Below are positions 5,848 to 26,131 of a DNA stretch of 64,000 bases, piece after piece. Made by a program: the position numbers and the translations under genes. The notes under the pieces were generated by a model. That model saw nothing but the letters and a program-made list of their open reading frames with translations. It made no database searches and was not told the origin of the DNA. Numbering within the stretch: position 1 is the stretch's first letter; every line of letters starts with the position of its first letter. Origin of the DNA: an uncultured Actinomycetes bacterium (GTDB lineage: Bacteria > Actinomycetota > Thermoleophilia > UBA2241); the NCBI GenBank assembly GCA_963709345.1, contig CAVPVX010000004.1, forward strand, positions 96,001 to 160,000. The letters are read 5' to 3'.

Positions 5848-7548
<1,701 letters not shown>

Positions 7549-7627
7549 CCGCGCCGCCGGGCTGCGGGCGCGACGGTTGAGGAGGGTGTCGACTCGGGGT
7601 ACACTCCTGCTGCCCCTCGGGCATCGC

Positions 7628-7703
7628 TGGCGAGTGGCCTAATTGGCAAGGCACCTGACTCTGGATCAGGGGATTGAAGGTTCGAGTCCTTCCTCGCCAG
7701 CCA
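7628..7703 (+). tRNA. tRNA-Gln(CTG)
   Basis: Acceptor TGGCGAG/CTCGCCA, anticodon arm CCTGA-CTCTGGA-TCAGG, GGTTCGAGTCC, encoded CCA. Confidence 0.97.
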
Positions 7704-7804
7704 TCCTCTTCCTCTCCTTTCCGCATCTCCGTCGCAGTGCGGCCGCGTGGATTCACGCGGTGCCGCGCGTGGCGCGGCGTGGCCGCGGGAGGAGGCGAGA
7801 GGGG

Positions 7805-7852
7805 TGGTAGCGCATACAGGATTCGAACCCGTGGTACCGCCGTGAGAAGGCG
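7805..7852 (-). repeat. att-like copy of the tRNA-Glu 3' end (distal)
   Basis: 45/48 nt identical to 23544-23591 by manual alignment; D-arm and 5' acceptor strand absent. Confidence 0.9.
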
Positions 7853-7929
7853 CCGGGATGGCCTCCCCAGATCGGCACACAGAGGCCCGGCCCACACGAA
7901 ACCGATCGCGTACCGGGGATTTGGGCTGA

Positions 7930-9374
7930 AGATGGATTGCAGACGGACCGTGCGGCGGCCCTCAGCACGGTCTGCGGTACTGGCGGGAGCGGCTGATCGG
8001 CGCCATCCTCCTCACCGGAGTCGCTCTCGGCACCGTCGTCTACCCACCAAGCATCTGGCTCGCCGTTCGGGAGCATCTGCCCGCGGTCGTGTTCGCGGAC
8101 ACACTGATTCTCGGCACCGGGATCTCCCTGCTCGTCCTTCGGCGCATCCCTTACTGGATCCGGGCGTCGGCCGTCGTGGCGATCTGCTATCTGCTCGGCT
8201 TCGTGCTCTTTCTGGCGCTGGGGCCCGACGGCGCGGGAATCGTCTGGCTGTTCACCGCGCCCGTTCTTGCCGGCGTTCTCGGCGGGACGAGAGCCGCCTG
8301 CGCCGCGCTGGCGCTGAACGGAGCGACGATCGTCGCCTTCTGCCTGCTGATCCTCAGCAAAGGGGATTCCATCGCAGCGCTCGCCGACCAGCCGGTGGAG
8401 AAGTGGATCGTCATCGGGCTGAACTTCATGCTGCTCAACTCGCTCGTCGCCATTTGCGTGGCACTTCCGCTCCGAGGGCTTCAACGATCGCTCCAGGAGG
8501 TGCAGAGCGCCCGCACTTCGTTGGAGCGCAATCACGAGCAGCTCGCGGCCACGCACGCCGAGCTTCGCACCGCTGATTCAAAACGCAGCAAGGCCGAGAA
8601 CGAGCTCAAGGAGCACTACGGACAACTCGAGGATCTCGTCGAGAAGCGCACGGCGGAGCTCGCCTCGACCAACCAGGAGCTCGAATCGTTCGCCTACTCG
8701 GTCTCCCACGACCTGCGGGCGCCGCTGCGCGCCCTCGACGGCTTCAGCCAGGTGCTGATCGAGGACTACTCCGAGGTGCTCGGCGAGGAGGGCCGCGCCC
8801 ACCTCGAGCGCATCCGCGCCGCCGACGCCCGCATGGGCACCCTGATCGACGCCCTGCTCGAGCTGTCGCGCCTCAGCCGCGGCGAGCTGAAACGAGAGAC
8901 GCTCGACCTCTCGCGCGATGGCCCACGAGCTCGGGCGCCGAGCTTGCGGAGGCCGAGCCCGGAGCGCCACGTCGAGCTGGTCGTCGCCGAGGGGCTCGAG
9001 GCCAGGGCCGACCGCGAACTCGTCGCGCGCCCTGCTCACCAACCTGCTCGGCAACGCCTGGAAGTTCACCGGCGCCCACGAGACGGCGCGCGATCGAGGT
9101 CGGCGCCGCCGCGCTCGACGGCGAGCGCGCCTTCTTCGTGCGCGACGACGGCGCCGGCTTCGACATGGCCTACGCCGAGAAGCTCTTCGGCGCCTTCCAG
9201 CGCCTGCACGGCGCGGGCGAGTTCGAGGGCCTCGGCATCGGCCTCGCCACCGTGCAGCGCGTCGTGCGTCGGCATGGCGGACGGGTGTGGGCCGAAGGCG
9301 CGGTGGAGCAGGGCGCGACGTTCTTCTTCACGTTGCCGGCGGCTGCCGGCGAGGACTCACCGGCGGGTCTGTGA
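7930..9374 (+). pseudogene. Membrane sensor histidine kinase, multiply frameshifted
   Basis: TM region, H-box [13 protein letters not shown], then N-box [10 protein letters not shown] and G-boxes DDGAGFD/GLGIGLA in different frames; no clear start codon at the 5' end. Confidence 0.8.
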
Positions 9375-9430
9375 TTTCCGTCGCGTCAGATGATCTGAGC
9401 TGGGCAGGCGGTCAGACGCAGAGGGCGATC

Positions 9431-9620
9431 AGACGTGGCCGGGTTCGTTTGGGCAGTTGAACCGGGTTGGTAGGTCATGAACCGCTCGCCATGTAACTGC
9501 TGCTTGCGCGCGTCGTGTATACCAGTAGACCTCGTCGGCGTACGGTCGCTCAGGCCCTGGCGCCGGCGCCGGTGGTGGTAGAAGTCGAAGTGGGCGGCCA
9601 GCTCCGTGCGTGCCCCGGTC
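9431..9620 (-). mobile_element. IS3-family transposase C-terminal remnant with probable right end
   Basis: ARTELAAHFDFYHHRRRRQGLSDRTP/DEVYW (one frameshift) matches the IS3 integrase-core tail pattern YNxxRxHxxLxxRTP; followed by a plausible terminal IR. Confidence 0.65.
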
Positions 9621-9925
9621 AAGATGAGGGCGGTTCGAGGTTGGCACAGCAAGGCTGCAAGCCTTCGCCGGAGGAGTGCACCAGCGAGTGTTTCAGCAGC
9701 TTGCCACTCGCCAAGGTGGCCGCTCAAACCGGCAGGCAGGTCGTCCCGCGAAGCGGGATGCTGTCCATTGGCCGACGACAGCGGGCAGGCCGGCAGCGTT
9801 CGGGGCAGCGATGCCGAAGCCGTTCCCGATGCTCTGGCGCGCTTCGTGCAATGGGCATAGAGTGCTGATGCGTCCGCGGCACTCAGTGGGGGCCAATCGA
9901 GGCGCGGACCGCTGGGAGGAGCGCC

Positions 9926-12895
9926 ATGTCGCCCGATGTTGGCTCAGACCCCGGATCTCAGGCCCTTGGCGCCGCCAAGCAGGCGTTCACCGAGAGCGCT
10001 GAGCAGTGCCGCGTCATCGTCGCCTCACTGCGCGAGGGTATCGTCATGCTCGATCGGGACGGGCACGTCCTCACCCAGAACGACGCCGCCCGTCGCCTGC
10101 TCGGTGATGTGCCGGCGGAGGCGCTCGGCCTTGCGTCCGGGCCGCACGACTGGAACCTCATCGGTGAGGACGGCGAGGTGCTGCCCGCAAGCGACCGCCC
10201 CGGACGCAGGACGCTCGACACGGGCGAGCCGACCAGCGACGTGCTCGCGGGGATCAGGCAAGACGGAGGAGCCGTGACCTGGCTCCTCGTCAACGCCCTC
10301 CCGCTCCCGGCGACCGAAGCCGCCCCCACGCAGGCGGTGCTCCTTGCGTTCTCCGACGTGACCGGCCTCAAGGAAGCGGAGATCGAGTGGCGGCGGCTCA
10401 ACGCCGCGCTCGAAGAGCAGCTTGCGAGCCGCACGCAGCAGCTCGAGGCGACCACCCGGGCGCTCACCGAGGCAGAGGCGGCGTCGGGCACGCTACGCGA
10501 GAGCGAGGAGCGCAACCGTGCGCTCGTCGAGCACCTGCGCAGCGGCGTCGCCGTCTACGAGGCCACCGGCGACGGCGACGACTTCATCATCCGCGATCTC
10601 AACCGCGCCGGAGCGCGCATGGAGAAGACCACGAAGAAGGCGGTCCTCGGCAGGCCGGTGACGAAGGTCTTCCCCGGCATCCGAGAGCTCGGCCTTCTGG
10701 AGGTGTTCCAGCGCGTCTGGCGGAGCGGCAGGGCGGAGCACCTCCCGGCAGCTCTCTACCGCGACGAACACCTCAGCGGCTGGCGCGAGAACTGGATCTA
10801 CCGGTTGCCCTCGGGGCAGGTAGTGGCCATCTACAACGACGTCACTGAGCGCGTCCACGCAGAGCACGCTCTGCGCGAGAGTGAGGCACGCTATCGTTCG
10901 CTCTTCGAAGACTCGCCGTTCGCGATGTGGGAGGAGGACAACTCGGCGGTCAAGGCCCATTTGGAGGAGCTCGCCGCCTCGGGTGTCGACAACGTGATCG
11001 GTCACGTGCTCGCCGACCCACGAGAATACGCGCGCTGCGTCTCGCTGACCCGGGTCATCGATGCGAACAAGGCGGCGGTGCGCCTCTTCGAGGCCAGGAG
11101 CCGTGACGAGCTGCTTGCACGCAACAGCGATCTCTACCGAAGCGAGAGCGCCCGGGGCGTGCACCACTTCTGGTCGGCGATGCTCGCGGGCGATCACCAG
11201 GCGACCTTCGAGGAGTCCAACTTCTCGCTCCGCGGAACGGAGATCCACGTCCTCGAGACCTGCACGGTGGTCCCCGGTCACGAGGCGACGTTCGACCGGG
11301 TCTATGTCGCCGATGTCGACATCACCGAGCGCAAGCATGCCGAAGACGAGCTGCGAGCGAAGCACACCGAGGTCGAGTGTCATCGGGAGCTGCTGGCCAA
11401 GCTGCTCGACACCATTCCAAGTCCCGTCTTCTACAAGGACGCCACCGGTGTCTACCTGGGCTGCAACCGCGCCTTCGAGCAGCTTCTGGGGCGAGAACGC
11501 GGCGAGATCGTCGGCAAGTCGGTCGCCGACATGGCCCCGCCGGAGATCGCAGAGACGTACGACGCGATGGACCGCCGACTCTTCGAGCAGCCGGGAACGC
11601 AGACCTACGAGTGGAAGGTGCAGGCTGCCGACGGCTCGCAGCGCGACGTCGTGTTCAACAAGGCGACGTTCAATGGAGACGACGGGCAGGTCGCAGGACT
11701 CATCGGCGTGATGCTCGACGTCACCGAGCGCAAGCAGGCCGAGGAGATGCTGCAGAGGAGCACCCAGCTCCTCAGGGATACCGGAGCGATGGCCAGGGTC
11801 GGAGGGTGGGAGCTTGACCTCTCGACCGATGAGGTCACATGGAACGACGAGGTCTGCCGGATCCACGGAGTCGAGCCGGGATACGAGCCCAGACTCGACG
11901 AAGCTCTAAGCTTCTTTGCACCCGAATCAAGGCCGGCCCTGGAGCAGGCGATCAAGCACGCTGTCAGGACCGGCGAACCTTGGGATCTCGACCTCCTCTT
12001 CATCCCGGCAGGCAGCAAGGAGAGGATCTGGGTGCGGATGCTGGGCAGGGCCCTCTACAGCGGCGACAGGGTAGCCAGACTTACCGGCACATTCCAGGAT
12101 ATCGATACGTACAGGCGGGCCGAGGACGAGATCCGTCGCCTCAACGCCGAGCTCGAGGAGCGTGTCATCACGCACACCGAGCAGCGCGACGCGGCGGCCA
12201 GGGAGCTCGAGGCGTTCGCCTACTCTGTGGCCCACGACGTACGCACGCCGTTGCGTGCCATCGACGGGTTCGCCACCATGGTGCTCGCAGACGACGGTGA
12301 GCACCTGAGCCCGGCATCTGTCGAGCACCTGGGGCGGGCACACGATGCGGCGCAGCGCATGGCGCACCTCCTCGATGACGTGCTCGGGCTCTCGCGCGTC
12401 TCGAGTCGTGATATGCACCGCGAACCGGTCGACCTCAGACGCCTTGCTCTCGAGGTCGCCGAGGAGCTGCGCGCCGAGCAACCGCAGCGCCAGGTGGAGT
12501 TCGCGGTGGCGCCCGACCTCGACGCCGACGCCGACCCGGCGCTGACCAGGCTTGTCCTGCGTGAACTGCTCGCCAACGCCTGGAAGTTCACCGCCGGGCG
12601 CGACGTCGCCCACGTCGAGGTAGGCGCGCGGGATGCCCATGGCGAGCGCGCCTTCTACGTGCGCGACGACGGCGCCGGCTTCGACATGCGCTGCGCCGAG
12701 CATCTCTTCGGCGCCTTCCAGCGCATGCACCGGGCGGAGGACTTCGGGGGGGACGGCATCGGGCTCGCTACCGTGCAGCGCATCGTGCGTCGCCACGGCG
12801 GCCGCGTGTGGGCCGAGGCCGAGGTGGAGCAGGGCGCGACCTTCTACTTCACGTTGCCGGTGGCGACTGGCAAGGACTCACTGCCGGGTCTGTGA
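9926..12895 (+). CDS. Cytoplasmic multi-PAS sensor histidine kinase
   Basis: About five PAS/PAC-like segments, FAYSVAHDVRTPL H-box, NAWKFT, DDGAGFD, GIGLA. Confidence 0.92.
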   Translation: MSPDVGSDPGSQALGAAKQAFTESAEQCRVIVASLREGIVMLDRDGHVLTQNDAARRLLGDVPAEALGLASGPHDWNLIGEDGEVLPASDRPGRRTLDTGEPTSDVLAGIRQDGGAVTWLLVNALPLPATEAAPTQAVLLAFSDVTGLKEAEIEWRRLNAALEEQLASRTQQLEATTRALTEAEAASGTLRESEERNRALVEHLRSGVAVYEATGDGDDFIIRDLNRAGARMEKTTKKAVLGRPVTKVFPGIRELGLLEVFQRVWRSGRAEHLPAALYRDEHLSGWRENWIYRLPSGQVVAIYNDVTERVHAEHALRESEARYRSLFEDSPFAMWEEDNSAVKAHLEELAASGVDNVIGHVLADPREYARCVSLTRVIDANKAAVRLFEARSRDELLARNSDLYRSESARGVHHFWSAMLAGDHQATFEESNFSLRGTEIHVLETCTVVPGHEATFDRVYVADVDITERKHAEDELRAKHTEVECHRELLAKLLDTIPSPVFYKDATGVYLGCNRAFEQLLGRERGEIVGKSVADMAPPEIAETYDAMDRRLFEQPGTQTYEWKVQAADGSQRDVVFNKATFNGDDGQVAGLIGVMLDVTERKQAEEMLQRSTQLLRDTGAMARVGGWELDLSTDEVTWNDEVCRIHGVEPGYEPRLDEALSFFAPESRPALEQAIKHAVRTGEPWDLDLLFIPAGSKERIWVRMLGRALYSGDRVARLTGTFQDIDTYRRAEDEIRRLNAELEERVITHTEQRDAAARELEAFAYSVAHDVRTPLRAIDGFATMVLADDGEHLSPASVEHLGRAHDAAQRMAHLLDDVLGLSRVSSRDMHREPVDLRRLALEVAEELRAEQPQRQVEFAVAPDLDADADPALTRLVLRELLANAWKFTAGRDVAHVEVGARDAHGERAFYVRDDGAGFDMRCAEHLFGAFQRMHRAEDFGGDGIGLATVQRIVRRHGGRVWAEAEVEQGATFYFTLPVATGKDSLPGL

Positions 12896-13005
12896 GTTCT
12901 GTCGCGTCAGATGATCTGAGCTGGGCACGCGGCCAGTCGCAGAAGACGATGCAGGCGTGGCCGACGCCACCGCGCCGACTGGCGCCATCGAAGCCCAACC
13001 ACTGC

Positions 13006-13052
13006 CGGCCGCGCGCACGGGATTCGGACCCGTGTTACCGCGTGAGGGGGCG
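13006..13052 (-). repeat. Degenerate att-like copy of the tRNA-Glu 3' end (middle)
   Basis: About 40/48 identity with one gap to 23544-23591 (ACGGGATTCGGACCCGTGTTACCG-CGTGAG). Confidence 0.75.
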
Positions 13053-13064
13053 CCCCTCCTGGGC

Positions 13065-14195
13065 TCAGACAGCCTCTCGAGAGGGGCATTGGCCCAGCCA
13101 GTCCCGGTCGGCGAGCCTGGTCTGGGCGCCTAGTACGTCCTCCCGCAGGATCTGTCGCATCTTCTCGGGCTCCTCGAACGCCGGGCTGTGGGCCGACTTC
13201 TCGAACGTGTAGAACCCTTTGACCGGCGCCTCCAGCAGGGCCAGGTACTCCTTCGCCTGGCTGTAGGAAACGGTGTGGTCGAAGATGCCCGAGACGAAGT
13301 GGGCGGGCATCTTGAGCTCGGTGATCCGCCTGGTCAGGTCGTCGCCCTGTATCTCGTCCCACAGGCCGAAGCCCTTGGCGGCGAACTTGCCACGCCAGAT
13401 GTCGAGCTTCTCGCCCAGCGTGTACTCGCGGTTCAGCCACGACGGCAGGAAGATCCCGCTGATTACCGAGCTCATGTCGTGCGTCGTGCCCACGCCCAGG
13501 CCGTGCATCGCCGGGTCGCGTAGCGCCATGTACGTGCGCGACATCGGCAGTGTCCACGTGCACGGCGACTTCTCGAGCCTGCGCACCATCTTGTCGTCGC
13601 CGATCTCCTCGTACCGCTCGAGCATGTACCGGTAGGTCGCGTTCTCGGACTTGAGCTGGTAGGAGACCTGGCCCATGCCGATGTACGCCCTGTAGAGCTC
13701 CGGATGCTGAGCGGCCGCCTGGATGCCGATGTAGCTGCCCCACGAATGCCCCAGCAGGTAGATCTTGTCCTGACCGAAGCGCTCGCGCAGGTAGTCGGTG
13801 ACGGCGATCGTGTCGGCCACGAAGTGGTCTCGCGTCATGGTCTCCGGAGGCACACCGTCCCGGGAGAGCCCTGCGCCGCGCTGGTCCCACCACACCACCG
13901 TGAAGTCGTCCTCGAGACCCGTGGGGTACTTCTGCTCGAGGACGTACCCCGGCATCCCCGGCCCGCCGTGCACGAACAGCAGTACGGGATGGGATGCGTC
14001 CCTGCTCCGGACGATCATGCCCTGGTCCACGCCGTTGATCCTGACGTGGATCTTCTCGTTGATGCTGTTCGGCAGCGGTCTCCCGTGCTCGTCGAGGATC
14101 GGCCTCAGCCTCCCGGGGCTGACGAGGAAGAGTGCGGCCGCGGCGGCGGCCGCCGCCGCGGCGCCCGCCATCACGGAAGGCGGGACGCGACTCAC
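13065..14195 (-). CDS. Alpha/beta hydrolase (proline iminopeptidase-like), in frame with the upstream PadR in this sequence
   Basis: HGGPG, GHSWG, SAHSP motifs; GTG at 14195 is the likely natural start. Confidence 0.85.
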   Translation of the reverse strand: MSRVPPSVMAGAAAAAAAAAALFLVSPGRLRPILDEHGRPLPNSINEKIHVRINGVDQGMIVRSRDASHPVLLFVHGGPGMPGYVLEQKYPTGLEDDFTVVWWDQRGAGLSRDGVPPETMTRDHFVADTIAVTDYLRERFGQDKIYLLGHSWGSYIGIQAAAQHPELYRAYIGMGQVSYQLKSENATYRYMLERYEEIGDDKMVRRLEKSPCTWTLPMSRTYMALRDPAMHGLGVGTTHDMSSVISGIFLPSWLNREYTLGEKLDIWRGKFAAKGFGLWDEIQGDDLTRRITELKMPAHFVSGIFDHTVSYSQAKEYLALLEAPVKGFYTFEKSAHSPAFEEPEKMRQILREDVLGAQTRLADRDWLGQCPSREAV

Positions 14196-14753
14196 TTGCC
14201 GCTCGCCGGTTCGAGGGCGCTCAGGCACGCGACTCGCCTCGTCGCACCAGTCGACGAACGCCTGGCTCACGCGCTCGCCGCAGCGAACCGTGAGCAGGGA
14301 GTAGGCAAGGTTGGGGGCATCGCGGTACTGCTCCTTGAGCTGTTCGGTGATGCCCTCGTAGCGCTGCAAGAGCGCCTCGTGCTCCTGCCTGAAGCGCTGG
14401 ACGTGCTCGATTGTCACGTCCGGCCCGACCTCGATGCCGTGCATCACCTTCAGCAGCACCTCCACGCGGTACTGGAAGGTGTCGGCGGGCGACGCGAGCC
14501 ACTCGCGCAGCGCCTCACGGCCGGCTTCGGTGATCTGGTAGACCTTGCGATCCGGTCGTCCTTCATTGTGGTCGACGGAGAACGTCGCCAGACCCTCGGC
14601 CTCAAGCTGCTTGAGGATCGGGTAGATCTGCCCGTAGCTTTCGCTCCAGAAGTTGCCTGCGCTGCCCATGTACTGCTTGCGCATGTCGTAGCCGGACTGC
14701 GGCCGCCGCGACAGCAGGCCCAGGACGGCGTACTTGGTCTTGTTCTCGCGCAT
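14192..14753 (-). CDS. PadR family regulator with C-terminal helical domain
   Basis: SGYDM...WSESYGQIYPILKQLEAEG...RPDRKVYQITEAG; AAGGAGG RBS; natural stop probably at 14192-14194 with a +1 insertion near 14224. Confidence 0.85.
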
Positions 14754-14790
14754 GTCATGCCTCCTTGTCGGACCCCACTCTACTCCAAAA

Positions 14791-14829
14791 AGATATGTAT
14801 TGACAGAGGATATATCTGCAAGTTATAGT
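14791..14829 (+). promoter_or_regulatory. Sigma70-type promoter overlapped by a putative PadR operator
   Basis: TTGACA (14800-14805), 18 nt, TATAGT (14824-14829); inverted repeat AGATAT-N15-ATATCT (14791-14817) between divergent genes. Confidence 0.65.
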
Positions 14830-14869
14830 GCTGGCCAGAATAGGTCAACCAGACCGATGGGAGGCACTG

Positions 14870-16528
14870 ATGGCGACAAGAGACCCCGGGACGGGGGCGA
14901 CCCACAAGCAAGGCATCGTGGAGCCGGATCACGCGACTGAACCACGCCCTGGCGGCTCCCCTCGCGGGTGGCGCGAGCGGCTCAAGTCGGTGTCGGCCAC
15001 CGCACGTGCAGATATGAGGCGGACGAACAGATGGGCGCGGTCGGGCGTCGTTGTCGGCGCCCCGGCGCTGGCTGCGTTTGCGCTCGGACTGGCGATGCCG
15101 CGAGGCCCCGTCTCGACCGGGGACGCGCTCGTATCGATGCTCACGTGCCTGGCCGTCGGTCTCCTCTCGGGCTTCGCCCTGCGCTCCCGCTGGGCGCTGC
15201 TCGTAGCTCCTCTCGTCTTCGCCGGTGTCTTCGAGCTGGTGCGTCTGAGCGAGGTCGGCCCGACGGTGGAAGGAATCAACGTGGGCTCGGCGTACGGCGT
15301 CATCGCCTTCATCAGCGGCCGCGGCGTCCACTTCGTGCTGGCGCTGCTGCCGATGCTCCTCGGGGCCGCCATCGGGGCGGGCATCGCGCGGCGTGCGGGC
15401 GGCGTCACCGCGTCGCCGCCGCGCCGTGTCGGGCTCGTCGCGCGTCGTGTTGTGGCCGGCGCCACCGCGCTCGCCTTGCTGGCGCTCGCGGTCTTCATCG
15501 CCGTGCCCGCCGGTACTCCGCAGATCCGTGGCGCCCACGGCGCCGTCGTCCCGGGGAGCATCGCCGAGCTGGTCAGCGTCGAAGTCGACGGCAGCGAGCA
15601 GGCGCTGATGATCCGCGGCAACAGCACCGACAACCCGGTCCTCCTGTTCCTCGCGGGTGGACCCGGCGGCAGCGAGATCGGCTCGATGCGAAACCTGAGC
15701 GAAGGTCTCGAGGAGGACTTCGTCGTCGCTACCTGGGACCAGCCCGGCACCGGCAAGTCAGTGGGTGCCTTCGACCCCCGCATGACCCTCGACGACATGG
15801 TCGCCGACACTATCGCGGTCACGGAGTATCTGCGCGAACGCTTCGGCGAGCAGAGAATCTACCTTGTCGGTAACTCCTGGGGCACGATCCTTGGGGCGCT
15901 CACCGCCAAACAGGCCCCGGATCTGTACTACGCGCTGGTCGGTACCGGCCAAATGGTCAGCTTTGTCGAGACCGACCGGATGTTCTACGAGGACACGCTC
16001 GCGTGGGCGAATCGCGAAGGCAACGTCGAGCTGAGCAACGTGCTCCGCGCAAACGGCCCGCCGCCCTACGAAGACACCCTCAAGTACGAAGCTGCCCTCT
16101 CGCACGAGCACGACTGGAACGTCTATCCGGGGCAGGATGCGCTCTCACAGAAGGGCGAGATGCCCGGCAACATCATGGTCGAGGAGTACTCACTGATGGA
16201 GAAGCTGCGGCTGATGGGCGGCATGCTCGACACGTTCTGCACGCTCTACCCGCAGCTCGACGGCATCGACCTGCGCCGCGACGCCGCCTGCCTCGACGTG
16301 CCCGTCTACCTCGTTCAGGGCGCGCACGAGGCTCGTGGACGCGCCGTCCCCGCCGGTGAGTGGTTCGAGATGCTGACGGCGCCGGGCAAGCAGATGATCG
16401 TGTTCGAGCAGTCCGGCCACAAGCCCTCGTTCGAGGAACCCGAGCGGTTTGTGCAGGTGATGACCAGCACCGTGCTTGCCGAGACCTACCCGGGCTTCCG
16501 CGACCGAGCAGAAGGAATCTCGAACTGA
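14870..16528 (+). CDS. Membrane-anchored alpha/beta hydrolase
   Basis: Several N-terminal TM helices, then AGGPG, GNSWG, SGHKP; GGAGG RBS. Confidence 0.85.
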   Translation: MATRDPGTGATHKQGIVEPDHATEPRPGGSPRGWRERLKSVSATARADMRRTNRWARSGVVVGAPALAAFALGLAMPRGPVSTGDALVSMLTCLAVGLLSGFALRSRWALLVAPLVFAGVFELVRLSEVGPTVEGINVGSAYGVIAFISGRGVHFVLALLPMLLGAAIGAGIARRAGGVTASPPRRVGLVARRVVAGATALALLALAVFIAVPAGTPQIRGAHGAVVPGSIAELVSVEVDGSEQALMIRGNSTDNPVLLFLAGGPGGSEIGSMRNLSEGLEEDFVVATWDQPGTGKSVGAFDPRMTLDDMVADTIAVTEYLRERFGEQRIYLVGNSWGTILGALTAKQAPDLYYALVGTGQMVSFVETDRMFYEDTLAWANREGNVELSNVLRANGPPPYEDTLKYEAALSHEHDWNVYPGQDALSQKGEMPGNIMVEEYSLMEKLRLMGGMLDTFCTLYPQLDGIDLRRDAACLDVPVYLVQGAHEARGRAVPAGEWFEMLTAPGKQMIVFEQSGHKPSFEEPERFVQVMTSTVLAETYPGFRDRAEGISN

Positions 16529-16592
16529 GAACGTGCGTGGTCATCGACTTACGGTCCGCCGGCAGCGGCGGTCCCCAACACGGAGAGCAACG

Positions 16593-17624
16593 ATGAATCC
16601 GACTCATGCATACGACGAGGCCGCCGGCGACATCCGGCGGCCGGGAGCAGAACAACCGCTGGGAGAGCCGGACGCCAGAGAGCTGATCAGGCATGCCGCG
16701 CTCGCGGCCTCCAGTCACAACACGCAGCCCTGGAGCTTCCGCATCGAGAGCGACCGGATAACCATCCTGCCCGACTACTCGCGGCGCTGCCCGGTGGTCG
16801 ATCCGGATGACGGCCACCTGTTCAAGAGCCTGGGCTGCGCCGCCGAGAACCTCGTTCACGCGGCAGCCGCGCAGGGGTTCTCGACCGACGTGCGATTCGA
16901 CGCCCGTGACGACGCCGTCACCGTGCTTCTGCACCCCGACGCCACGGCGCGCGCAACGGAGCTCTATCGGGCGATACCCAGGCGGCAGAGCGTGAAGGCC
17001 GCCTACGATGGCCGCCCGGTCGACTCCGTGGAAGTCGACGCGCTGGCCGAGGCGGGCAGGCAGTCATCCGTCCGCGCGATCCTGTTGACGTCAGACGAAC
17101 AGAAGGACGCGGTCGTCGACTACGTCAACCGGGGAAACGCCGCCCAGTTGACCGACATGGCCTTCAGAAACGAGCTCGCTTCATGGATCCGTTTCAATCC
17201 TGCCGACGCACTGCGGCAAGGCGACGGCCTTGCCGGACGCACCAGCGGCCAGCCGGCACTACCCAGCTGGCTCGCCAAGGCGATCCTCAGGTTCATCATC
17301 ACTCCCGAGGGCCAAGCCAAGACGGATGCAGCGGCCATCAAGAGCGCCGCCGGTGTCGCGGTCTTCGTGTCGAGCCAGGACGGCAAGGCGGCGTGGGTCG
17401 ACGTCGGCCGCGCCTACGAGCGCTTCGCCCTGCAGGCGACGGCACTCGAGATCCGCACCGCCTTCATCAACCAGCCGCTCGAAGTCCACGAGCTGCGCCC
17501 GGCACTCGAATCGTGGCTGGGGCTTGAGGGTGAGCATGCGCTGCTGATGGTCCGTTTCGGCCACGGGCCCACCGCGCCCTTCAGCCTGCGCCGCCCCATC
17601 GACGACGTGATCCTCGCGGCATGA
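16593..17624 (+). CDS. Acg-family FMN-binding nitroreductase
   Basis: AASSHNTQPW, SLGCAAENL, GRAYERFALQAT, SLRRP. Confidence 0.85.
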   Translation: MNPTHAYDEAAGDIRRPGAEQPLGEPDARELIRHAALAASSHNTQPWSFRIESDRITILPDYSRRCPVVDPDDGHLFKSLGCAAENLVHAAAAQGFSTDVRFDARDDAVTVLLHPDATARATELYRAIPRRQSVKAAYDGRPVDSVEVDALAEAGRQSSVRAILLTSDEQKDAVVDYVNRGNAAQLTDMAFRNELASWIRFNPADALRQGDGLAGRTSGQPALPSWLAKAILRFIITPEGQAKTDAAAIKSAAGVAVFVSSQDGKAAWVDVGRAYERFALQATALEIRTAFINQPLEVHELRPALESWLGLEGEHALLMVRFGHGPTAPFSLRRPIDDVILAA

Positions 17625-17758
17625 CTCAGGCAGGTGGGGGCAGCGTCTCGCAAGGCCCCAGCCGTGCGGCCGCTTGCAGGTATCGCGCGCGCACCACGCC
17701 TGGCGGCGCTTCGACAGAGAGGAACACGCCCGGCGCTGAGCTCGATGCGCCTCGCCGG

Positions 17759-17782
17759 GGTCAAGTCCCGATGTGTGGTGTA
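17759..17782. mobile_element. Orphan IS256-family-like terminal inverted repeat
   Basis: Reverse complement TACACCACACATCGGGACTTGACC resembles the IS1081-type end pattern TACACCAC..TTGNCC (recalled, not searched); no transposase nearby. Confidence 0.45.
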
Positions 17783-17829
17783 CCGGCACGAGCCGTCACG
17801 AGGCGACACGGACTAGCTCTGCGGCGGCC

Positions 17830-18243
17830 TCACCCGTAGTTGCGCCGCTCCGGCCCCCAGTAGCGCACCTCGGTGGCGCGCCGATCGGGGACCCACTGCA
17901 CATCCGGGCCGTTGGCAAAGTGGCCTTGCCGCCGGTACATGGCGTCAGTAATGGACCGCCCCAGCACCGCCATGAGGTCGTCACTCGGCGAGGACATCCA
18001 GGACTCTTCCTCGAGACTAAGGACGTCACCGTCCTCCAGTACGAGGTATCCGCTCCCTTCGGAGCGCCCGTCCGTGAGGAGAAAGCCGTGGGCGGGTACG
18101 GTCTGGTCCGACGACCAGTCGGGCGACGCGCCCGGACCGAACATCACATCTCTGTTCGGGGACTGGCCGTGAGTCCTGACCTTCTTCAGCCACTCCGACG
18201 TCACCTGACGCAGTTTTTCGGGACTCTGCGACGGATACGTCAT
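17830..18243 (-). CDS. Hypothetical protein
   Basis: 137 aa ORF from MTYPSQ with GAGGGGAGG RBS and normal protein-like composition. Confidence 0.6.
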   Translation of the reverse strand: MTYPSQSPEKLRQVTSEWLKKVRTHGQSPNRDVMFGPGASPDWSSDQTVPAHGFLLTDGRSEGSGYLVLEDGDVLSLEEESWMSSPSDDLMAVLGRSITDAMYRRQGHFANGPDVQWVPDRRATEVRYWGPERRNYG

Positions 18244-18488
18244 GAGAGGCGCCTCCCCTCGGCCCGAACGGCCGGACGCGGACGTTTCATCCAAACGCCC
18301 TACTGTGTCAATTGTATACCTGCGAAAGTCGGCGTCCAGGGGTGTCCAGACGCAGAAGCGGCCGGGAGAAGCGTTCATCTGACTCCCCAGCTGCATCGGC
18401 AGCGTAGCGCAGTCTGCGGCCGCCTCACGTGCATCGTCCTGCGGCATAGATCCAGCTCGATGCAGCGCGGGACTCACGCGAGCTTGCG

Positions 18489-18686
18489 TTGCCCTTCTAC
18501 GCGAAGAAGATGGGCGGCTGCGGGCTCGGGAGCTTTCCCTGCGGCCACATCGCCAGTTTCGAGGCCGGCAAAGACGACCCCTACAGTGGAGCTGCGACAG
18601 TCGTGGTGACGGCCGCGACGTTCGACCCCTTCCTCGGCATGGTGGCGGGGATCGTCGTCCGCTTCCTCACCGGGTTGATCCTGTGA
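18489..18686 (+). pseudogene. C-terminal fragment of a membrane transporter-like gene
   Basis: Only a hydrophobic tail VVVTAATFDPFLGMVAGIVVRFLTGLIL precedes the isochorismatase gene. Confidence 0.35.
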
Positions 18687-18708
18687 AGCACAAGAAGGGA
18701 GAGAGACC

Positions 18709-19224
18709 ATGAACCCCGAGAACGCCGCGCTCCTTGTGATCGACGTCCAGCACGACTTCATCGATGAGGGCGCTCCGGTGTACTGCGTCGGCGGCAAAGA
18801 GATGCTGCCCAAGGTGCGCCGGCTGATTGACGCCTGCCGAGACGCGGGCATCCCCATCGTCTACACGCAGGAGGTGGCGCCCATGCCCGAGGACATCGTC
18901 GTGCGCAAGCCTCGCTACAACGCCTTCCTCGGAACCGACCTCGAGTTCGTGTTGAACGGCCTCGGCGTCATGCCCCACGACACGCTGATCGTCTGCGGCG
19001 ACGCGACCAACGTCTGCGTCCACTACACCGCAGCCGAGGCGCACCAGCGCGACTACCGAGTGAAGGTCGTCGAGGACTGCTGCGCGGGCAGCAGCCCGGA
19101 GGCGCACGAAGCCGCGCTCGCGCAGATCGAGTACCTGCAGCATGGCTCGCGCGTCACGCTCGACGAGATCCAGGACGAACTCCCCCGCTTCAGGCGCGAG
19201 CAGGCGGGCGCGAAAGGACGCTAG
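18709..19224 (+). CDS. Isochorismatase-family cysteine hydrolase, probably internally deleted
   Basis: ALLVIDVQHDF, KPRYNAF, TNVCV; the usual segment between TQEV and the KxR motif appears missing. Confidence 0.8.
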   Translation: MNPENAALLVIDVQHDFIDEGAPVYCVGGKEMLPKVRRLIDACRDAGIPIVYTQEVAPMPEDIVVRKPRYNAFLGTDLEFVLNGLGVMPHDTLIVCGDATNVCVHYTAAEAHQRDYRVKVVEDCCAGSSPEAHEAALAQIEYLQHGSRVTLDEIQDELPRFRREQAGAKGR

Positions 19225-19340
19225 AGCACTGTCACAAAAACCGCTTCACAGCGTCCGACCTTCTCGAGGATCGCGTCGATCGAAGCCGTCCAGATGAAGG
19301 GCTTCGGGTCCTCGTTGTGGGTGTCTAGGTAGGCCTGGAC
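19221..19340 (-). mobile_element. IS630-family transposase C-terminal remnant
   Basis: AYLDTHNEDPKPFIWTASIDAILEKVGR ending at CTAG, typical of IS630 termini. Confidence 0.75.
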
Positions 19341-19855
19341 CACAGCAGAAGGCCCGGGACACAGCCTGGGTGCCACAACTGGTTGTTGTACACGAGAGGC
19401 CATCACATGACCCGCGACGACGCCGGCAGGCCAGACGCTGACGGAATCTCCAGAACCGACGGTTCGGCAACTCGAGGCCAAGAACCGTCGGTTCTGGCGA
19501 TTCTGGCGCTGCCCAAGTCGTCGACGCCGATCACGGGCGGATCTGGCAGACTGTCGGAAAGCTGCGCCGCCGCCACGCCTGGGAGGTGGACGCGGTCGCG
19601 AGGGCCGGCTGGGGTACCGGCTGCAGCGCTGGCCGTTCTGCTTCAGTCGCCACCGAAGCCGGGGCTCTCGCCGAAGGGCGCCCGGCGAGGGCGGACGTCG
19701 TACATGGGCAGCCTCACTCCAAGCACCGACCGGCGCCCGGCATCGCCGACCGGACGCCCAAGGCGCTGCCTACCGTGAACGACCAGGCTCAGGCTGGCTC
19801 CCCGAGCAGAGAGCACACGCCCGGAGTGAGCTCATGCCGTGATGTCGCGGCGGCG

Positions 19856-20314
19856 TCACGAGGCTGCGTCGATGGCCCGGAATCGCGACAGGCCTGTGTC
19901 CTCATCTGTGATGCGCCGGATCGACGGGCCGGTGAGTTCCTGCAGCATCATCTCGCACGAGTACACGATGCAGCCGGGCGATAGATCGCCCCCGAACGCC
20001 GCCCCAAGCTCGTCTCCCAGAACCAAGTGACAGTGGACCTCCATGCCGTCACTCGATCTGAGAGCCGTGCCGACGAGGTGCAGGAGCATCAGCGGGCGGT
20101 CGAACTCGATGAGCCGATCCTGATGCGCCGCTTGGTCGTAGTAGGTCAGGGCGGCTTTGGAAAGGCTGCCGATGGTCTCGATACGACAGAAGTCAAGGTC
20201 GCGGTCCATGACCGCGCGTTCGATCTCCTCGAGGAGGTCGCTGCCAAAGGGCGGCGTGATGAGGATCGTACTGCCTGTCGTGAACGCGGCGGAAATGCCG
20301 GGCTGCGCCTTCAT
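19856..20314 (-). CDS. DUF296 / PPC-domain protein
   Basis: GSDLLEEI, IGSLSKA, VHCHLVLGD..GAAFGGDL, RITDEDTGL. Confidence 0.8.
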   Translation of the reverse strand: MKAQPGISAAFTTGSTILITPPFGSDLLEEIERAVMDRDLDFCRIETIGSLSKAALTYYDQAAHQDRLIEFDRPLMLLHLVGTALRSSDGMEVHCHLVLGDELGAAFGGDLSPGCIVYSCEMMLQELTGPSIRRITDEDTGLSRFRAIDAAS

Positions 20315-20315
20315 A

Positions 20316-20429
20316 TCATTCTCGCCCGATTCGACGTACTGTCCGGGTGGAAGTCGGCGTGCCCAGCTTCCATCGGACCGGCCAGTCACAGACGCTGTGC
20401 AGCGGCGCCCTCACTCCAAACGACATCAT
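20316..20429 (-). CDS. Putative 37 aa small ORF upstream of DUF296
   Basis: AAAGGAGG RBS; MMSFGVRAPLHSVCDWPVRWKLGTPTSTRTVRRIGRE; stop 1 nt before the DUF296 ATG. Confidence 0.4.
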   Translation of the reverse strand: MMSFGVRAPLHSVCDWPVRWKLGTPTSTRTVRRIGRE

Positions 20430-20747
20430 CGTGGTCTCCTCCTTTGATCAGGCACGAAGGGTGCCCCCAATTTCCTGCTAAGGCAAGAATACCTTGGATT
20501 CCGGGCTGGCTGCAGGAGAGTCGGCATCGCTGCGGGACGGAGACCGGCGGCGGGCGGGGCGTCGGCCGCCGGCGACGCACGCGTTGTCCGGCGGGCACGT
20601 CCGTAGGCGAGAGGATCTGTCGGTTCCGGCAGTTTCGGCACGGTGGTCGCGTGACACAGCCGGTCTCGCAGCCAGTCGCGGAAGACGGGGCATCGTCGCT
20701 GTACCAGCTAGCGCCGAATACCCGTGGACGGTGCCGTCTGAACGCAC

Positions 20748-20772
20748 GCATCTGGGTTGCAGAATGGTTGCA
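20748..20772. repeat. Arm-type-like GGTTGCA repeats
   Basis: GGTTGCA at 20755 and 20766 (11-nt period); GCATCTGGGTTGCA (20748-20761) recurs exactly at 21001-21014. Confidence 0.7.
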
Positions 20773-20821
20773 GAACGGGGGTCTAGCGAAGGGCAAGAGA
20801 AGCGATTGCGCTGCAAATGAG

Positions 20822-20869
20822 TGGTAGCGCATACGGGATTCGGACCCGAGTTACCGCCGTGAGAGGGCG
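20822..20869 (-). repeat. att-like copy of the tRNA-Glu 3' end (proximal)
   Basis: 46/48 nt identical to 23544-23591. Confidence 0.92.
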
Positions 20870-21500
20870 CCCCGGGGGCCTGTCCGATAGGGACCAGAGA
20901 AGTGCGTTTGATCACTGGCAGTCACAAAACTGTGGCCATTTGCAGCGAAAGTCGGCGGGCCGTTTCCCGAGGCGTCCCAACGAGTTCCAGCGCGAACCGG
21001 GCATCTGGGTTGCATCAGTGTCAGTCTGAGTCATGGTGGGCCGCGCCAGGGAGGTCCCTTCCACGACGAGGCGGTGCGGTGAAGACTGTCGTGCGTCGTG
21101 AGCTTGGTCGACATCGGCAGCGGGCGAACCGGGAGCCGCGATGCTCATCGCCATGTTCAACGAGACCAGGGGATGGGTCGGGAAGGGAAGGTCGCGGGGC
21201 GATCACGGCCGCGGCGCTCGATCCGCGGGCGCTCGAATTCGACCATCCCTCCCTGAGACGATAACATCGCAGCTGTCTGCACTCTTCTTCTGGGGGGTTG
21301 GAGAATGCTGAGGCCCGCTGCGCTTGCCGCCCATGGCGGTCCTTCTCCTGATCCTCGTCTGCAGGGGCCTCCGGCCTTACCTCTTCGCCCCCTGCCGCAC
21401 GAGGACCAGCGCCGCGAGGGAGTCCGCTCGGCGACGGCATCGGCGGCCGGTGCGGACTATCACCGTCACGCTCGACGAGGGGGACAGATGATCGCGATGG

Positions 21501-23010
21501 GTGAGAGCGGACGAGAGAGGCCTTCAGACAGGCGGCGAGGTTCGTCACGACCCCGGGATCGGGCGTGTGCCCGCGCTGGCGATCGTGCTCGTGGCTCTGG
21601 CCGCCATCGCCGTCGTGGCTGGGTGCGGCGGCCCGGGCGGTGGCGGGGAACGGCGAAGTCGCGTCGGCGACCCCGCCGCTTTCGAGACCGCTGCGCAGAA
21701 GGCCGGCTTCACCGTCCAGGAGGGGAAGTTCGAGGTCTTCGATATCGCCGCCATGTACGACGCCGGGCTCATCCCCTGCTGTTGGGGCAACAACCCGAGC
21801 ACGCCATGAGCATGGATCCACAAGCTGCCGATGGCGCCGGGACAGACGGCTCGCCGACACGGCCAGCGACGCGCCGATCGAACCAGAGAACAAGGGCCTC
21901 TGGGGTGACTGGCGCCTGCGCCCCGATCGAGGCCGTCGTCTACATCGGACCTACGCCGCCGGAGCTCGACTACTACAGCTACCGCAGCTACATCGCGATA
22001 CGGTACTTCCCCAAGGAGGGCCGTGCGCGCCGCGTCTTCGCCAGCCTCGGCGATACCATCAACCACCTCGACATCAAGACCACCGGTACGCCTGACGGCG
22101 CGCAGGGGAAGCCGTTCGGCCAGACGACCGTGATCATCACCACCGCCGACAAGTGCGCGCAGCGCGACGCCCGCAGAAGGCGGGGTACTCGTCGTCGATC
22201 GATCAACACCGACGTGATCCCGTCGGGCTCGTCCACATGCGGCCTCGACGCGCACAGCGACACGTTCACGTTCGGTCCATCGCGTGGCGTTCTTCAAGGA
22301 CAAGCAGGCAGGCGACGCGTACGCTTGGTGCCCCGCAGGGCGCGGTCTTTCGCCTCACCCCGACGCAGGAGACGTCGACTGCCGACCTGCAGCCCTTTCC
22401 TGTCCCCGAGCTCAAGGTCCGCGGCACCGGCGACACGAGAGAGCTCGACCTCGAGGCGGCCGTCGACCGGCTGCGTGACGCGATCCTCGAGAAGCACAGC
22501 TCGGAGCGCGCCACAGAGTTGTCGACCGGCGTGTGGCTCGGCGAGGGCTACGATCCAGCGCGGCATCGACGTCATCGGCGAGAACCGCGACACGATCTAC
22601 CTACGGCTCCGACGACTTCGTCCTCGGCGACGACTCCGACGCTATCTGATCGTCTACGGCGTGAACCACGCTCGCCCGGCAAGGTGATCTATTCGAACTT
22701 CGGCGTTACGGCGAGCAGGCCGTGAACGGGGTGGGCCGTGGCCGGCGAGATGCTAAGGGCACCGCGACGAGTATCTGGCCGGCGACCCGGACGCAAAGTA
22801 CCTGTACGTCTTCAAGGTGGCACGCCATGCCAGGGCGACCCGCGCTGTCTCGAGGTGAAGGTCGGCGACAAGGCCGAGGAGATCGGGCCAAGGAACCGGC
22901 TTTCGTCGGCTTTCGCGCCTACGTCGAGCCCTCGACCAAGGCGGGGCCCGACTACGCCGAGGTCCTCGTACGACCGCGTGATCAAGCTCGGGCCGGGGAA
23001 GGAGAAGTGA
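21501..23010 (+). pseudogene. Heavily frameshifted secreted lipoprotein of unknown function
   Basis: Signal peptide with VAGC lipobox; protein-like segments (WRLRPD/EAVVYIGPTPPELDYYSYRSY, FASLGDTINHL, FVGFRAYVEP, YDRVIKL) alternate between all three + frames. Confidence 0.7.
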
Positions 23011-23059
23011 GACCTCGAACGGCGGGATGAGCACAGCACGCGGGGGACGGACGACCGCG

Positions 23060-23345
23060 ACCTGTGGCGCCCCGGATGGGAACAGGGACGACTGGTGGGC
23101 GCGCTCGCCGCGTTTGTTCTCGACGACGGATCTGGGGAGCCCGCTGGGCGTCCAGCCAGACGAGCGGGGCCGCGGGATCACAGGAGCACTTCTCCGCCAC
23201 GTCTTCGGCGGTCTCGCCGCTGACGGGGTCCGCTCGGTGCTGATGGTCGAAGACGCTGAGAGCCTCACAGGAGCCACCGCGCTCTACGGGACTTCGCAAT
23301 GGGCGTGGCGAGATGCTTCGACCTGCGCGAGCGAAAGGCAGGTGA
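23060..23345 (+). pseudogene. GNAT acetyltransferase fragment
   Basis: LGVQPDERGRGITGALL...DAESLTGATALY resembles GNAT motifs A/B. Confidence 0.55.
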
Positions 23346-23421
23346 TGCGTCCCGACCGCGCCGACGATCCATACGCGGACCAAGCAGGGTCCCAGATGTA
23401 CCAACCGCAGACTGCGTCGCA

Positions 23422-23495
23422 GCGTCCCAGGCGTCCCGGCGTCCCAGGCGTCCCGGTTGCACTTTCGGTTGCATTTCGGTTGCAGAAGGGTTGTA
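23422..23495. repeat. Tandem GCGTCCC repeats plus four phased GGTTG(C/T)A arm-like repeats
   Basis: GCGTCCCAGGCGTCCCG twice; GGTTGCA at 23455, 23467, 23478 and GGTTGTA at 23489. Confidence 0.8.
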
Positions 23496-23543
23496 GCCGA
23501 CCGGTCTGGCGGAGGGGTAACGAGGCGATTTCGCTGAGATGGC

Positions 23544-23619
23544 TGGTAGCGCATACGGGATTCGAACCCGTGTTACCGCCGTGAGAGGGCGGCGTCCTAG
23601 GCCCCTAGACGAATGCGCC
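23544..23619 (-). tRNA. tRNA-Glu(CTC)
   Basis: 76 nt cloverleaf GGCGCATTCGTCTAGGGGCCTAGGACGCCGCCCTCTCACGGCGGTAACACGGGTTCGAATCCCGTATGCGCTACCA. Confidence 0.97.
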
Positions 23620-23901
23620 ACGCAAGAACGGGGCTGCTGCTCCGGCGAGACCTCCATGCCCGTTCCCATATGGAAAGGTGCTGCGGAGCGAAGGTCCCAT
23701 AAGTGCTACCACGGTCCAGAGCCGCTGGTGCTGCCACCCGTCGATTGCACAGCGGCAGCGGCGAATTAGGGTAGCACAAGAGCCGCGCACGGCAAACCCT
23801 GGACGCTCCCGGCACGCGGCCGCGTCTTCCCGGCCGGCTCCCATACCTCCCGCGTGGCGTGATACGGTTTCGTGACCGACTCAGCGGACCGCGGGAGGCA
23901 A

Positions 23902-25321: not shown

Positions 25322-25383
25322 CTGCGCCGGGCGGCGCGGCCAGCCGCGCCGGCAGATCGCGCCCCGTCTCACGCGCCCGCCCG

Positions 25384-25761
25384 TCAGCGCTCGATGAGCT
25401 CCACCCAGTTGCCGTCTGGGTCGGCGACGAACGCGAGGCGGGTGCTGCCGCCCTCGTGTGTCTTCGGCGGCCGGCCGACGTCGCCGGCGCCGGCCGCCAG
25501 CAGACGCTCGTAGGTCGCATCGACGTCGTCGACGTCGAAGGCGAAGTGCCCGAAGCGATCCCCGCCGTCGTAGGGATCGTCCTTACCCCAGTTGTAGACG
25601 AGCTCGATGGCGAAGTCGCCCGCCTCCGGCTCCAGGAACGCCAGAGTCGCCCTGCCCTTGGTCAGATCGCTGCGCCGGACGCACGTCATGCCGAGTGCCT
25701 CGTAGAACTCGATCGCCTTCTCCAGGTTCTTCGTCCGTGTCGCGACGTGTACGAACTTCAT
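25384..25761 (-). CDS. gloA: Lactoylglutathione lyase (glyoxalase I / VOC family)
   Basis: HVATRTKNLEKAIEFY, IELVYNWG, FGHFAFDVDD, AFVADPDGNWVELIE. Confidence 0.85.
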   Translation of the reverse strand: MKFVHVATRTKNLEKAIEFYEALGMTCVRRSDLTKGRATLAFLEPEAGDFAIELVYNWGKDDPYDGGDRFGHFAFDVDDVDATYERLLAAGAGDVGRPPKTHEGGSTRLAFVADPDGNWVELIER

Positions 25762-26131
25762 GTCGTCCCCTTCTGTGTGCGCGGGCCGTATCTGTCGGTG
25801 CGTTCGACGAGAGCGTACCCGTCTTGCGCCGAGATGGGCGCATCCCTCCGTCGCTCGACGTGGATGCGCGCGGCTCAGCCCGGTGTTCCGGCTGCGTGGC
25901 GGCGATCGCCGACGCAGACACCGTCTTCGCCGCGCGGCGCCGGCCCGTCGGACCCTGCCCGCCGGGAGACTGGCCCGCCCGGCCCGCCCCGCCTTCCCGG
26001 TTCTTCCGTCACGACACATTGTCGTTGCCGAGGGCGGGTGCTAGCGTCTTTCTTCAGTCGTAGATAGCCAGAGAGCCCATGCATAGTCGCGACCCGGCGG
26101 TTCGTCGCCGCCGGTCCACAAGGAGGGGCAC

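Follow-up and report, generated by a model that had tools for sequence, protein, structure and literature searches.

Tandem integrase-less units at a tRNA-Glu hot spot of an uncultured Thermoleophilia genus are probable remnants of stacked integrative islands

The window, the whole stretch of DNA analysed here, comprises the 64,000 nucleotides at G000:C4:96001–160000 in the metagenome-derived genome of an uncultured Thermoleophilia bacterium (G000; 3,110,482 bases in 11 contigs, 98% complete). Handles beginning with G denote genomes of its genus, those with L fetched loci or metagenome contigs and those with C contigs; plain coordinates are positions in the window. Between a tRNA-Gln and a tRNA-Glu gene lies a tandem array in which partial copies of the tRNA-Glu 3′ end separate units of accessory genes. 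The intact tRNA-Glu(CTC) gene at 23544–23619 (−; ARAGORN, Rfam agreeing) forms the attL core (att, attachment site) and the anchor of the array. Global alignment to its 3′ 48 nt gave 45 of 48 identities for the copy at 7805–7852 (−), 40 of 48 with one 1-nt gap for a degenerate copy at 13006–13052 (−), both arms of which are degenerate too, and 46 of 48 for the copy at 20822–20869 (−), the same figures as in an initial annotation of this DNA. Copies and intact gene share one orientation, with spacings of 5201, 7816 and 2722 nt, in agreement with the orientation and the units of about 5.2, 7.8 and 2.7 kb described there. In a blastn-short search of the tRNA region against all 3,110,482 bases of the genome, matches of at least 25 nt fell at this locus alone (the gene, 20822–20869, 7805–7852 and 13017–13041), and all remaining matches were of 19 nt or less; copies this close are far more than chance would yield. 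A GAACCC to GGACCC change in the T-loop region is common to 13006–13052 and 20822–20869 and missing from the intact tRNA and the 7805 copy; it may be a derived state that originated as element-borne core variants or by gene conversion. A second tRNA-Glu(CTC), of 74 nt and with its anticodon at the odd position 30, was found by ARAGORN on contig C7 (737005–737078) and has no long match to the tRNA-Glu gene of the window.

The hot spot has conserved borders. On its left, tRNA-Gln(CTG) at 7628–7703 (+; ARAGORN, Rfam agreeing) follows glnS (5848–7548), and the spacer at 7704–7804, the B′ flank, is colinear with the empty site of G007 and would be native sequence 3′ of the original tRNA-Glu end; the 7805 copy is then probably that original 3′ end, displaced. 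On its right, a gene for a membrane protein starts at 23872 and a malic enzyme gene occupies 26132–27862. Eighteen loci downstream of glnS were fetched; the congeners have kept glnS and tRNA-Gln as well as the genes that lie right of tRNA-Glu. The gap between the two tRNA genes is only 159 nt in G006 and 77 nt in G007, both of which are empty sites, and measures 1.3 kb in G003, 3 kb in G001, 7.9 kb in G008 and 12 kb in G014; in the remaining fetched loci it is longer still or a contig end intervenes. Colinearity between window and G007 runs to 7855 (window 6694–7855 corresponding to L116 1–1131) and starts again at 23533. Because colinearity is broken in between, 7853–23543 is inserted DNA, and the empty sites of the two congeners mark the entire block as an insertion. 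Its GC content is 0.671, against 0.695 for the genome, among the lowest 4.5% of 619 genome windows of 15.7 kb. A 3′ direct repeat in the orientation of the gene, an empty site and a deviating composition are thus all present, as expected of a tRNA-targeting island. The array interior (7,900–20,700) had no DNA match in the 18 fetched loci except for one distant hydrolase match, and G004, the closest relative on the right flank, carries other DNA both beside its tRNA and beside its distal copy.

Each junction of the array is part of a conserved module of ~290 bp, made up of a P′ arm (lying 3′ of the tRNA), the tRNA core of 44–48 nt and a P arm (lying on the opposite side). Both arms contain GGTTGCA repeats, arranged in tandem at the outer arm ends with a period of ~11 nt: the P′ arm has two to four, at a distance of ~55–75 nt from the core, and the P arm has two, at ~140–160 nt. 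The window and 32 loci yielded 41 core matches, comprising 12 full tRNAs and 29 partial copies. P′ arms of one family adjoin 29 of the 41, including those at 20712–20821 and 23434–23543, and the P arms of partial copies form two families, one with nine members (all three window copies and six other genomes) and one with ten (G060 and G065). The right sides of all three window copies therefore belong to one P-arm family, as the initial annotation had sensed in noting that their likeness continues beyond the tRNA part; it had overlooked the likeness of the left sides at 20712–20821 and 23434–23543, both with tandem GGTTGCA repeats. With up to one mismatch, the 10-mer GGTTGCAGAA occurs six times in the window against 1.54 expected, a count reached in 0 of 100 shuffles, and the three exact copies of the window all lie within arms.

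The arms are unevenly preserved. Unit A (7853–13005, 5.2 kb) has no recognizable P′ arm, and its P arm (7853–7947) has an internal deletion of ~70 nt and a degenerate outer repeat, GATTGCA. Unit B (13053–20821, 7.8 kb) keeps only its P′ arm (20712–20821), with two tandem GGTTGCAGAA repeats at 20755–20775. Unit C (20870–23543, 2.7 kb) keeps both: a P arm (20870–21020) with one outer GGTTGCA repeat at 21008–21014, 82–88% identical to P arms of other genomes and metagenome contigs, and a P′ arm (23434–23543) with four tandem GGTTGCA/GGTTGTA repeats at ~23455–23497, spaced by 11–12 nt. As unit C alone has both arms in good state, the block can instead be divided into just two elements, namely C, and A plus B as a composite with an old internal scar at 13006; only C and this composite are bounded by a P arm on one side and a P′ arm on the other.

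Judged by its layout, a core between arm-type sites within ~290 bp, the predicted site is a lambda-type attP, and the internal junctions are taken as hybrid P′-core-P sites, since successive insertions would give such sites. The anticodon stem is the usual site of tyrosine integrases in tRNA genes, and 25 of the 29 partial copies stop inside it, at tRNA position 44–48 from the 3′ end, which upholds the earlier view of the repeats as att scars left by a tyrosine integrase at the tRNA 3′ end. Its picture of stacked islands that belong to one element family and have no integrase of their own is supported as well. Another ~300 nt, lying left of the P′ arm and having no evident open reading frame (ORF), are conserved at 70–93% in L124 (1560–1860), L125, L128, L069 and L070, and are missing from the window.

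A profile of the module, searched against the genome, returned the four sites on C4 and two P′-arm-like stretches on C1, at tRNA-Ala(CGC) and tRNA-Ile. There, within C1 198430–206194, GGTTGCA arm repeats lie ~70 nt from the 3′ ends of tRNA-Ala(CGC) (200940–201015) and tRNA-Ile(GAT) (206118–206194). A second full tRNA-Ala copy (198430–198505; 91% identical) lies 2.4 kb away, and between the two former tRNA genes, at 202195–202782, is a 5′-truncated integrase of the family described below as cognate. This region looks like a further decayed stack formed by the same element family at other tRNAs.

No recombinase gene was detected in the array. PF00589 had 12 genome matches at E ≤ 1 and none on contig C4, PF14659 had two and none on C4, and PF00239 had none in the whole genome. 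Pfam scans of 37 and of 42 ORFs found a recombinase domain in none, and the best tblastn match of 17 integrase sequences to 7600–23700 had an E value of 0.013 over 24 aa. All of these searches agree with the initial annotation, which saw no tyrosine or serine recombinase in any unit. Two candidates were rejected. A possible integrase remnant in unit B at 17758–18122 (+), matched by the G060 and G065 integrases at E 0.09–0.75, was dropped because codon-position GC fits the minus-strand gene at 17830–18477 and no Pfam match was found. The ORF at 23872–26067 (+), considered as a hidden recombinase, matches no Pfam family and is conserved at the G006 empty site; its 731 aa consist of ~480 membrane-protein-like residues followed by an arginine-rich, out-of-frame tail. 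This tail overlaps an antisense ORF with good codon bias (25384–26019, −), and the true end of the gene probably lies before that of the ORF. Elsewhere in the genome, the homologues of the cognate integrase are all truncated (C1:202195–202782, residues 180–375; C11:108804–109298; C9:28091–28438, an N-terminal piece), and the nearest intact relative, beside tRNA-Arg(CCT), is 32% identical.

The cargo consists of ordinary accessory genes. Unit A carries a MASE11–HisKA histidine kinase gene (8089–9393) with at least two frameshifts, split near 9000–9140 and with its HATPase part in two other frames (9138–9374), which is either a pseudogene or the product of assembly errors; it is followed by an intact PAS histidine kinase gene (9926–12895; 989 aa). 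Unit B begins with a single 562-aa ORF (13065–14753, −) that fuses PadR, with a Vir_act_alpha_C domain, to an alpha/beta hydrolase; hydrolase (L075 and L076) and PadR (L106) are separate in relatives, so the fusion looks like a local rearrangement. There follow genes for an alpha/beta hydrolase (14828–16528) and a nitroreductase (16476–17624), the ORF at 17830–18477 (−), without known family, and genes for an isochorismatase (18709–19224) and a PCC-domain protein (19856–20389, −). The PadR–hydrolase–nitroreductase segment is 82–88% identical to a contig of a Thermoleophilia metagenome-assembled genome, where it adjoins tRNA-Arg(CCG). Unit C has a patchy coding signal and no clear Pfam family; a weak GNAT-like remnant at ~23051–23333 (+) is all of the interior that has relatives elsewhere in the genus, in 7 of 53 other genomes, and tblastx of the unit against relatives gave noise besides the att module. 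Pfam scans of the window and of the G060 array found no conjugation or mobilization genes in any unit, and no rep, FtsK-like tra or relaxase gene of the kind expected in integrative and conjugative elements (ICEs) or their actinomycete counterparts (AICEs).

The integrase missing here is present in related arrays. We scanned 16 genomes with PF00589 (G022, with its rearranged locus, was left out) and found in-array integrases in three, G060, G065 and G019; the array stretch has none in 12 genomes (G001, G003, G008, G010, G012, G014, G016, G017, G024, G053, G063 and G000). The intact G060 integrase (L061:10775–11926; 384 aa) has Phage_int_SAM_3 and Phage_integrase domains and is accompanied in that genome by two fragments. 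The G065 array has one intact, one truncated and one frameshifted integrase and a 40%-identical relative, and the G019 array a 193-aa fragment. These in-array integrases form one family (88% identity between G060 and G065, ~50% to G019) whose closest solved relatives are a staphylococcal integrase and Tn1549 Int, and which scores far below the cut-offs of integron-integrase models (45 bits for a cut-off of 265 bits, and 29 bits for one of 435 bits); as far as its sequence tells, it is a generic tyrosine recombinase. An intact WIN-type integrase would end in ...HVMPGMQEEAAEKIDAGL. An integrase beside the same motifs, for which the initial annotation had proposed a search, was thus found in the G060, G065 and G019 arrays, and no intact cognate copy was found in the window's own genome.

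Remnants tell how such genes may be lost. Family-specific tblastn over all fetched loci found them only in G019, G060 and G065. On metagenome contigs L119, L120 and L122, three C-terminal integrase stumps lie within 4 kb around one att module, and stumps of 20–60 codons that start at the outer GGTTGCA repeats abut the P arm in L047 (3751–3957 and 8468–8581) and L117 (1113–1253). Stumps beside att modules are direct evidence for integrase loss by deletion. The L047 and L117 stumps have a common left end point and differing right end points, a pattern that suggests either repeated deletions sparing the att module or the spread of one integrase-deleted ancestor. ORFs of the arrays were also clustered (433 ORFs over 396,903 bp from 20 genomes). 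PAS kinases recur in them, as do an ECF sigma factor together with the gene next to it, the integrase and a few further families; among the recurrent families examined there was no new candidate for a second recurring recombinase type.

Arrays of this kind are widespread in the genus and turn over quickly. The tRNA and right flank were matched in 49 of 54 genomes, and partial-only copies in at least 22 of the 54, a lower bound as up to nine candidates were scored per genome. Arrays in those genomes, which include assemblies of 5–10 contigs, have 2–12 copies. The largest, on contig C8 of G065 (1074003–1222710; L063–L068), comprises at least 12 copies of the tRNA-Glu 3′ end, in both orientations and spread along 148 kb, and three integrase-module copies; the hot spot makes up ~6% of that genome, and the array seems to have undergone inversions between att copies. 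In G060, one contig breaks off within the array and carries three units, and a second contig has five further copies. A two-block P-arm pattern recurs in 13 metagenome contigs (~8 non-redundant) whose module is 82–88% identical to that of the window and which have nothing else in common with it. The flanks of G060 and G065 are 97% identical, and their arrays share only att modules (80–91%) and the integrase module (84–87%), from which it follows that arrays are rebuilt faster than species diverge. Such turnover fits active integration there, capture in trans of integrase-less units, or replacement by homologous recombination. The comparison with relatives leaves both alternatives of the initial annotation with something in their favour: array content is not invariant, as its capture idea had anticipated, and integrases lie within units of some relatives, as decay would have it.

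The reading we consider likely is that an arm-binding tyrosine integrase stacked integrative islands in tandem at tRNA-Glu (accretion) and that the integrases were then deleted, so that the present units would be stranded remnants resembling cis-mobilizable elements (CIMEs). Small islands of one family would have been inserted successively, by site-specific recombination, at the tRNA-Glu(CTC) 3′ end, by a lambda-type tyrosine integrase predicted also to bind the GGTTGCA repeats as arm sites. Each insertion would rebuild the tRNA from the element's own core of 44–48 nt and push the previous 3′ end outward, and stacking would leave hybrid P′-core-P junctions between units. Later, integrase genes would have been deleted and arms would have partly decayed, leaving two or three integrase-less, CIME-like units with accessory genes. 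Without an intact cognate-family integrase in the genome, the array has most likely become stranded. We infer the order of insertion, the deletion of integrases from the window's own units and their present immobility. Signs of decay in the window itself are the frameshifted kinase, the degenerate junction at 13006 and the near-absence of coding signal from unit C. Of the two alternatives put forward initially, the first, decayed islands, is thus the better supported: intact, frameshifted and truncated integrases occur in related arrays, as do stumps, and the window has several broken genes and only one unit with both arms.

Several observations weigh against this interpretation. In none of the three window units was an integrase remnant found, and their former autonomy is accordingly deduced from relatives alone. 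With in-array integrases in only 3 of 16 scanned genomes, integrase-less units are the rule, which pure decay explains by survivorship only. The frameshifts in window genes could be assembly errors of a metagenome-derived genome. The tRNA-proximal units of G060 and G065 are unrelated and integrase-less despite their 97% identical flanks. Finally, att modules remain 80–88% identical across species while the DNA between them is unrelated, which could reflect selection on the sites.

The alternative that survives best, although we regard it as unlikely, is that the units are cassettes mobilized in trans, which never had an integrase or lost it before spreading and which moved as att-bounded circles through an integrase encoded elsewhere (on a plasmid, on a different island or within a different unit of the array), with the tRNA as an integron-like capture platform built on lambda-type sites. 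It would account for the lack of integrases in most array units of the genus, for the ~290-bp att module being the sole conserved part, with sharp ends at the outer arm repeats, and for integrase tails of different length abutting the same P-arm end (twice in L047, and in L117). The unrelated tRNA-proximal units at the near-identical G060 and G065 flanks agree with it as well, and so do the attP-like internal junctions (P′-core-P), given which an excised unit would carry a complete attP. Against this, the window's genome is without an intact cognate integrase; one arm is missing from unit A and one from unit B; related units formerly possessed an integrase gene of their own, as the stumps show; and no unit was found in two array contexts, with the possible exception of L123/L127 and L124, a reading limited by a contig end. 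Homologous recombination in conserved flanks or att repeats would, moreover, give the same pattern of turnover.

A related proposal, which we rate as quite improbable, is that selection keeps the ~290-bp att module as a portable site, so that arrays are capture platforms. Integrase-less units, some with just a stump of 20–60 integrase codons at the P arm, would leave them as circles that carry a complete attP, and rare integrases would re-insert these in trans. If true, the arrays would be a functional analogue of integrons, with lambda-type sites at a tRNA.

An assembly artefact, in which islands of different strains were joined through a common att repeat, is very improbable. The genome is derived from a metagenome and the att modules are repeats of 50–290 nt, and four public runs (word shares of 0.16, 0.06, 0.00 and 0.00), compared with 6000–25900, gave only short, low-depth contigs of the organism. 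Run X1 yielded near-identical pieces of 280–404 nt from units A and B and the right flank at depths of 2–5, none of them bridging an att junction; joints seen in reads were short-sided (21–46 nt), none joined two att copies, and these data bear on excision in neither direction. Yet the array sits mid-way along a 383-kb contig, in an assembly with 11 contigs and 98% completeness; similar arrays occur in independent metagenome contigs and in 22 or more of the 54 genomes of the genus; and the differences among the copies (45, 40 and 46 of 48) speak against a collapse or mis-joining. A decayed tandem tRNA-Glu gene array or local duplications without a mobile element, suggested by tRNA pieces repeated in one orientation, has next to no probability in view of the common stop position, the conserved arms with repeats, the cargo unrelated between species, the empty sites and the integrase family inside related arrays.

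The window taken alone is an ordinary case of a known process of genome growth. Across this uncultured soil genus, one tRNA-Glu hot spot is a major route of diversification: its content differs among all species examined, even at 97% identical flanks, and reaches ~150 kb. A literature search of titles and abstracts found no description of such arrays in Thermoleophilia. The att module and the integrase family are now defined as a basis for mobility tests, and the high share of integrase-less units makes the genus suited to asking whether such units are dead remnants or are exchanged in trans or by accretion.

In type, the pattern is a known one, that of Streptococcus CIMEs, Dehalococcoides ssrA islands and Prochlorococcus tycheposon islands, and not that of an integron. 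As in integrons, units separated by recombination sites carry varied cargo at a fixed chromosomal anchor. The attC sites of integrons are imperfect palindromes that recombine as folded single strands; here, by contrast, the sites appear from their layout (core with direct arm repeats) to be of lambda type and not attC hairpins. Nor does an intI gene lie beside the anchor (no PF00589 match on C4), and the units, of 2.7–7.8 kb with up to six genes on both strands, are not single co-oriented promoterless genes. The term integron-like used in the initial annotation is accordingly not supported as a statement of membership, given the lambda-type arm repeats, the multi-gene units and the absence of an integrase of IntI type next to the array.

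Arm-type sites and tRNA identity segments are known from lambda, L5 and actinomycete integrative elements of the pSAM2 and SLP1 type. The present system resembles these in its ~290-bp att site with arm repeats on both sides, in a core that corresponds to the part of the tRNA between its anticodon stem and 3′ end, and in an integrase (that of G060) with an N-terminal SAM-like and a catalytic domain. It differs from them in that no xis, rep or tra was seen and in that the integrase is missing from this genome's array.

For CIMEs, a path from integration through decay to accretion is laid out in a review of integrative and mobilizable elements (PMC5704250). Those of Streptococcus thermophilus, related to ICESt1 and ICESt3, are described there as having attL- and attR-type repeats of the target 3′ end and no integration or transfer genes, and as being stacked in tandem through site-specific integration beside a resident element. 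In the window, too, the ORFs scanned include no recombinase or transfer gene. Arms of both kinds remain on unit C and on the composite of A and B, and one arm is missing from A and one from B. The arrays of this genus differ in their host, an uncultured Thermoleophilia bacterium, in that cis-mobilization is putative, and in that their size can be much greater (G065 has at least 12 att copies spread along 148 kb). The tycheposon islands of Prochlorococcus (bioRxiv 10.1101/2020.12.28.424599) arise by repeated integration at one tRNA that pushes older elements inward, and contain fragmented integrases and scattered partial tRNAs; cargo and host differ, and we liken the two by pattern and not by integrase or replication family. 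In the ssrA region of Dehalococcoides (High Plasticity Region 2; PMC3146451), many islands likewise stand in tandem downstream of a small RNA gene, with 3′-end direct repeats that include extra conserved bases; 16 have and 15 lack an integration module, and the authors suggested that the latter are CIMEs. The ssrA islands have a CcrB-like serine recombinase and a 20-bp repeat, whereas the Thermoleophilia arrays have a tyrosine integrase with arm sites, a core of 44–48 nt and a module of ~290 bp.

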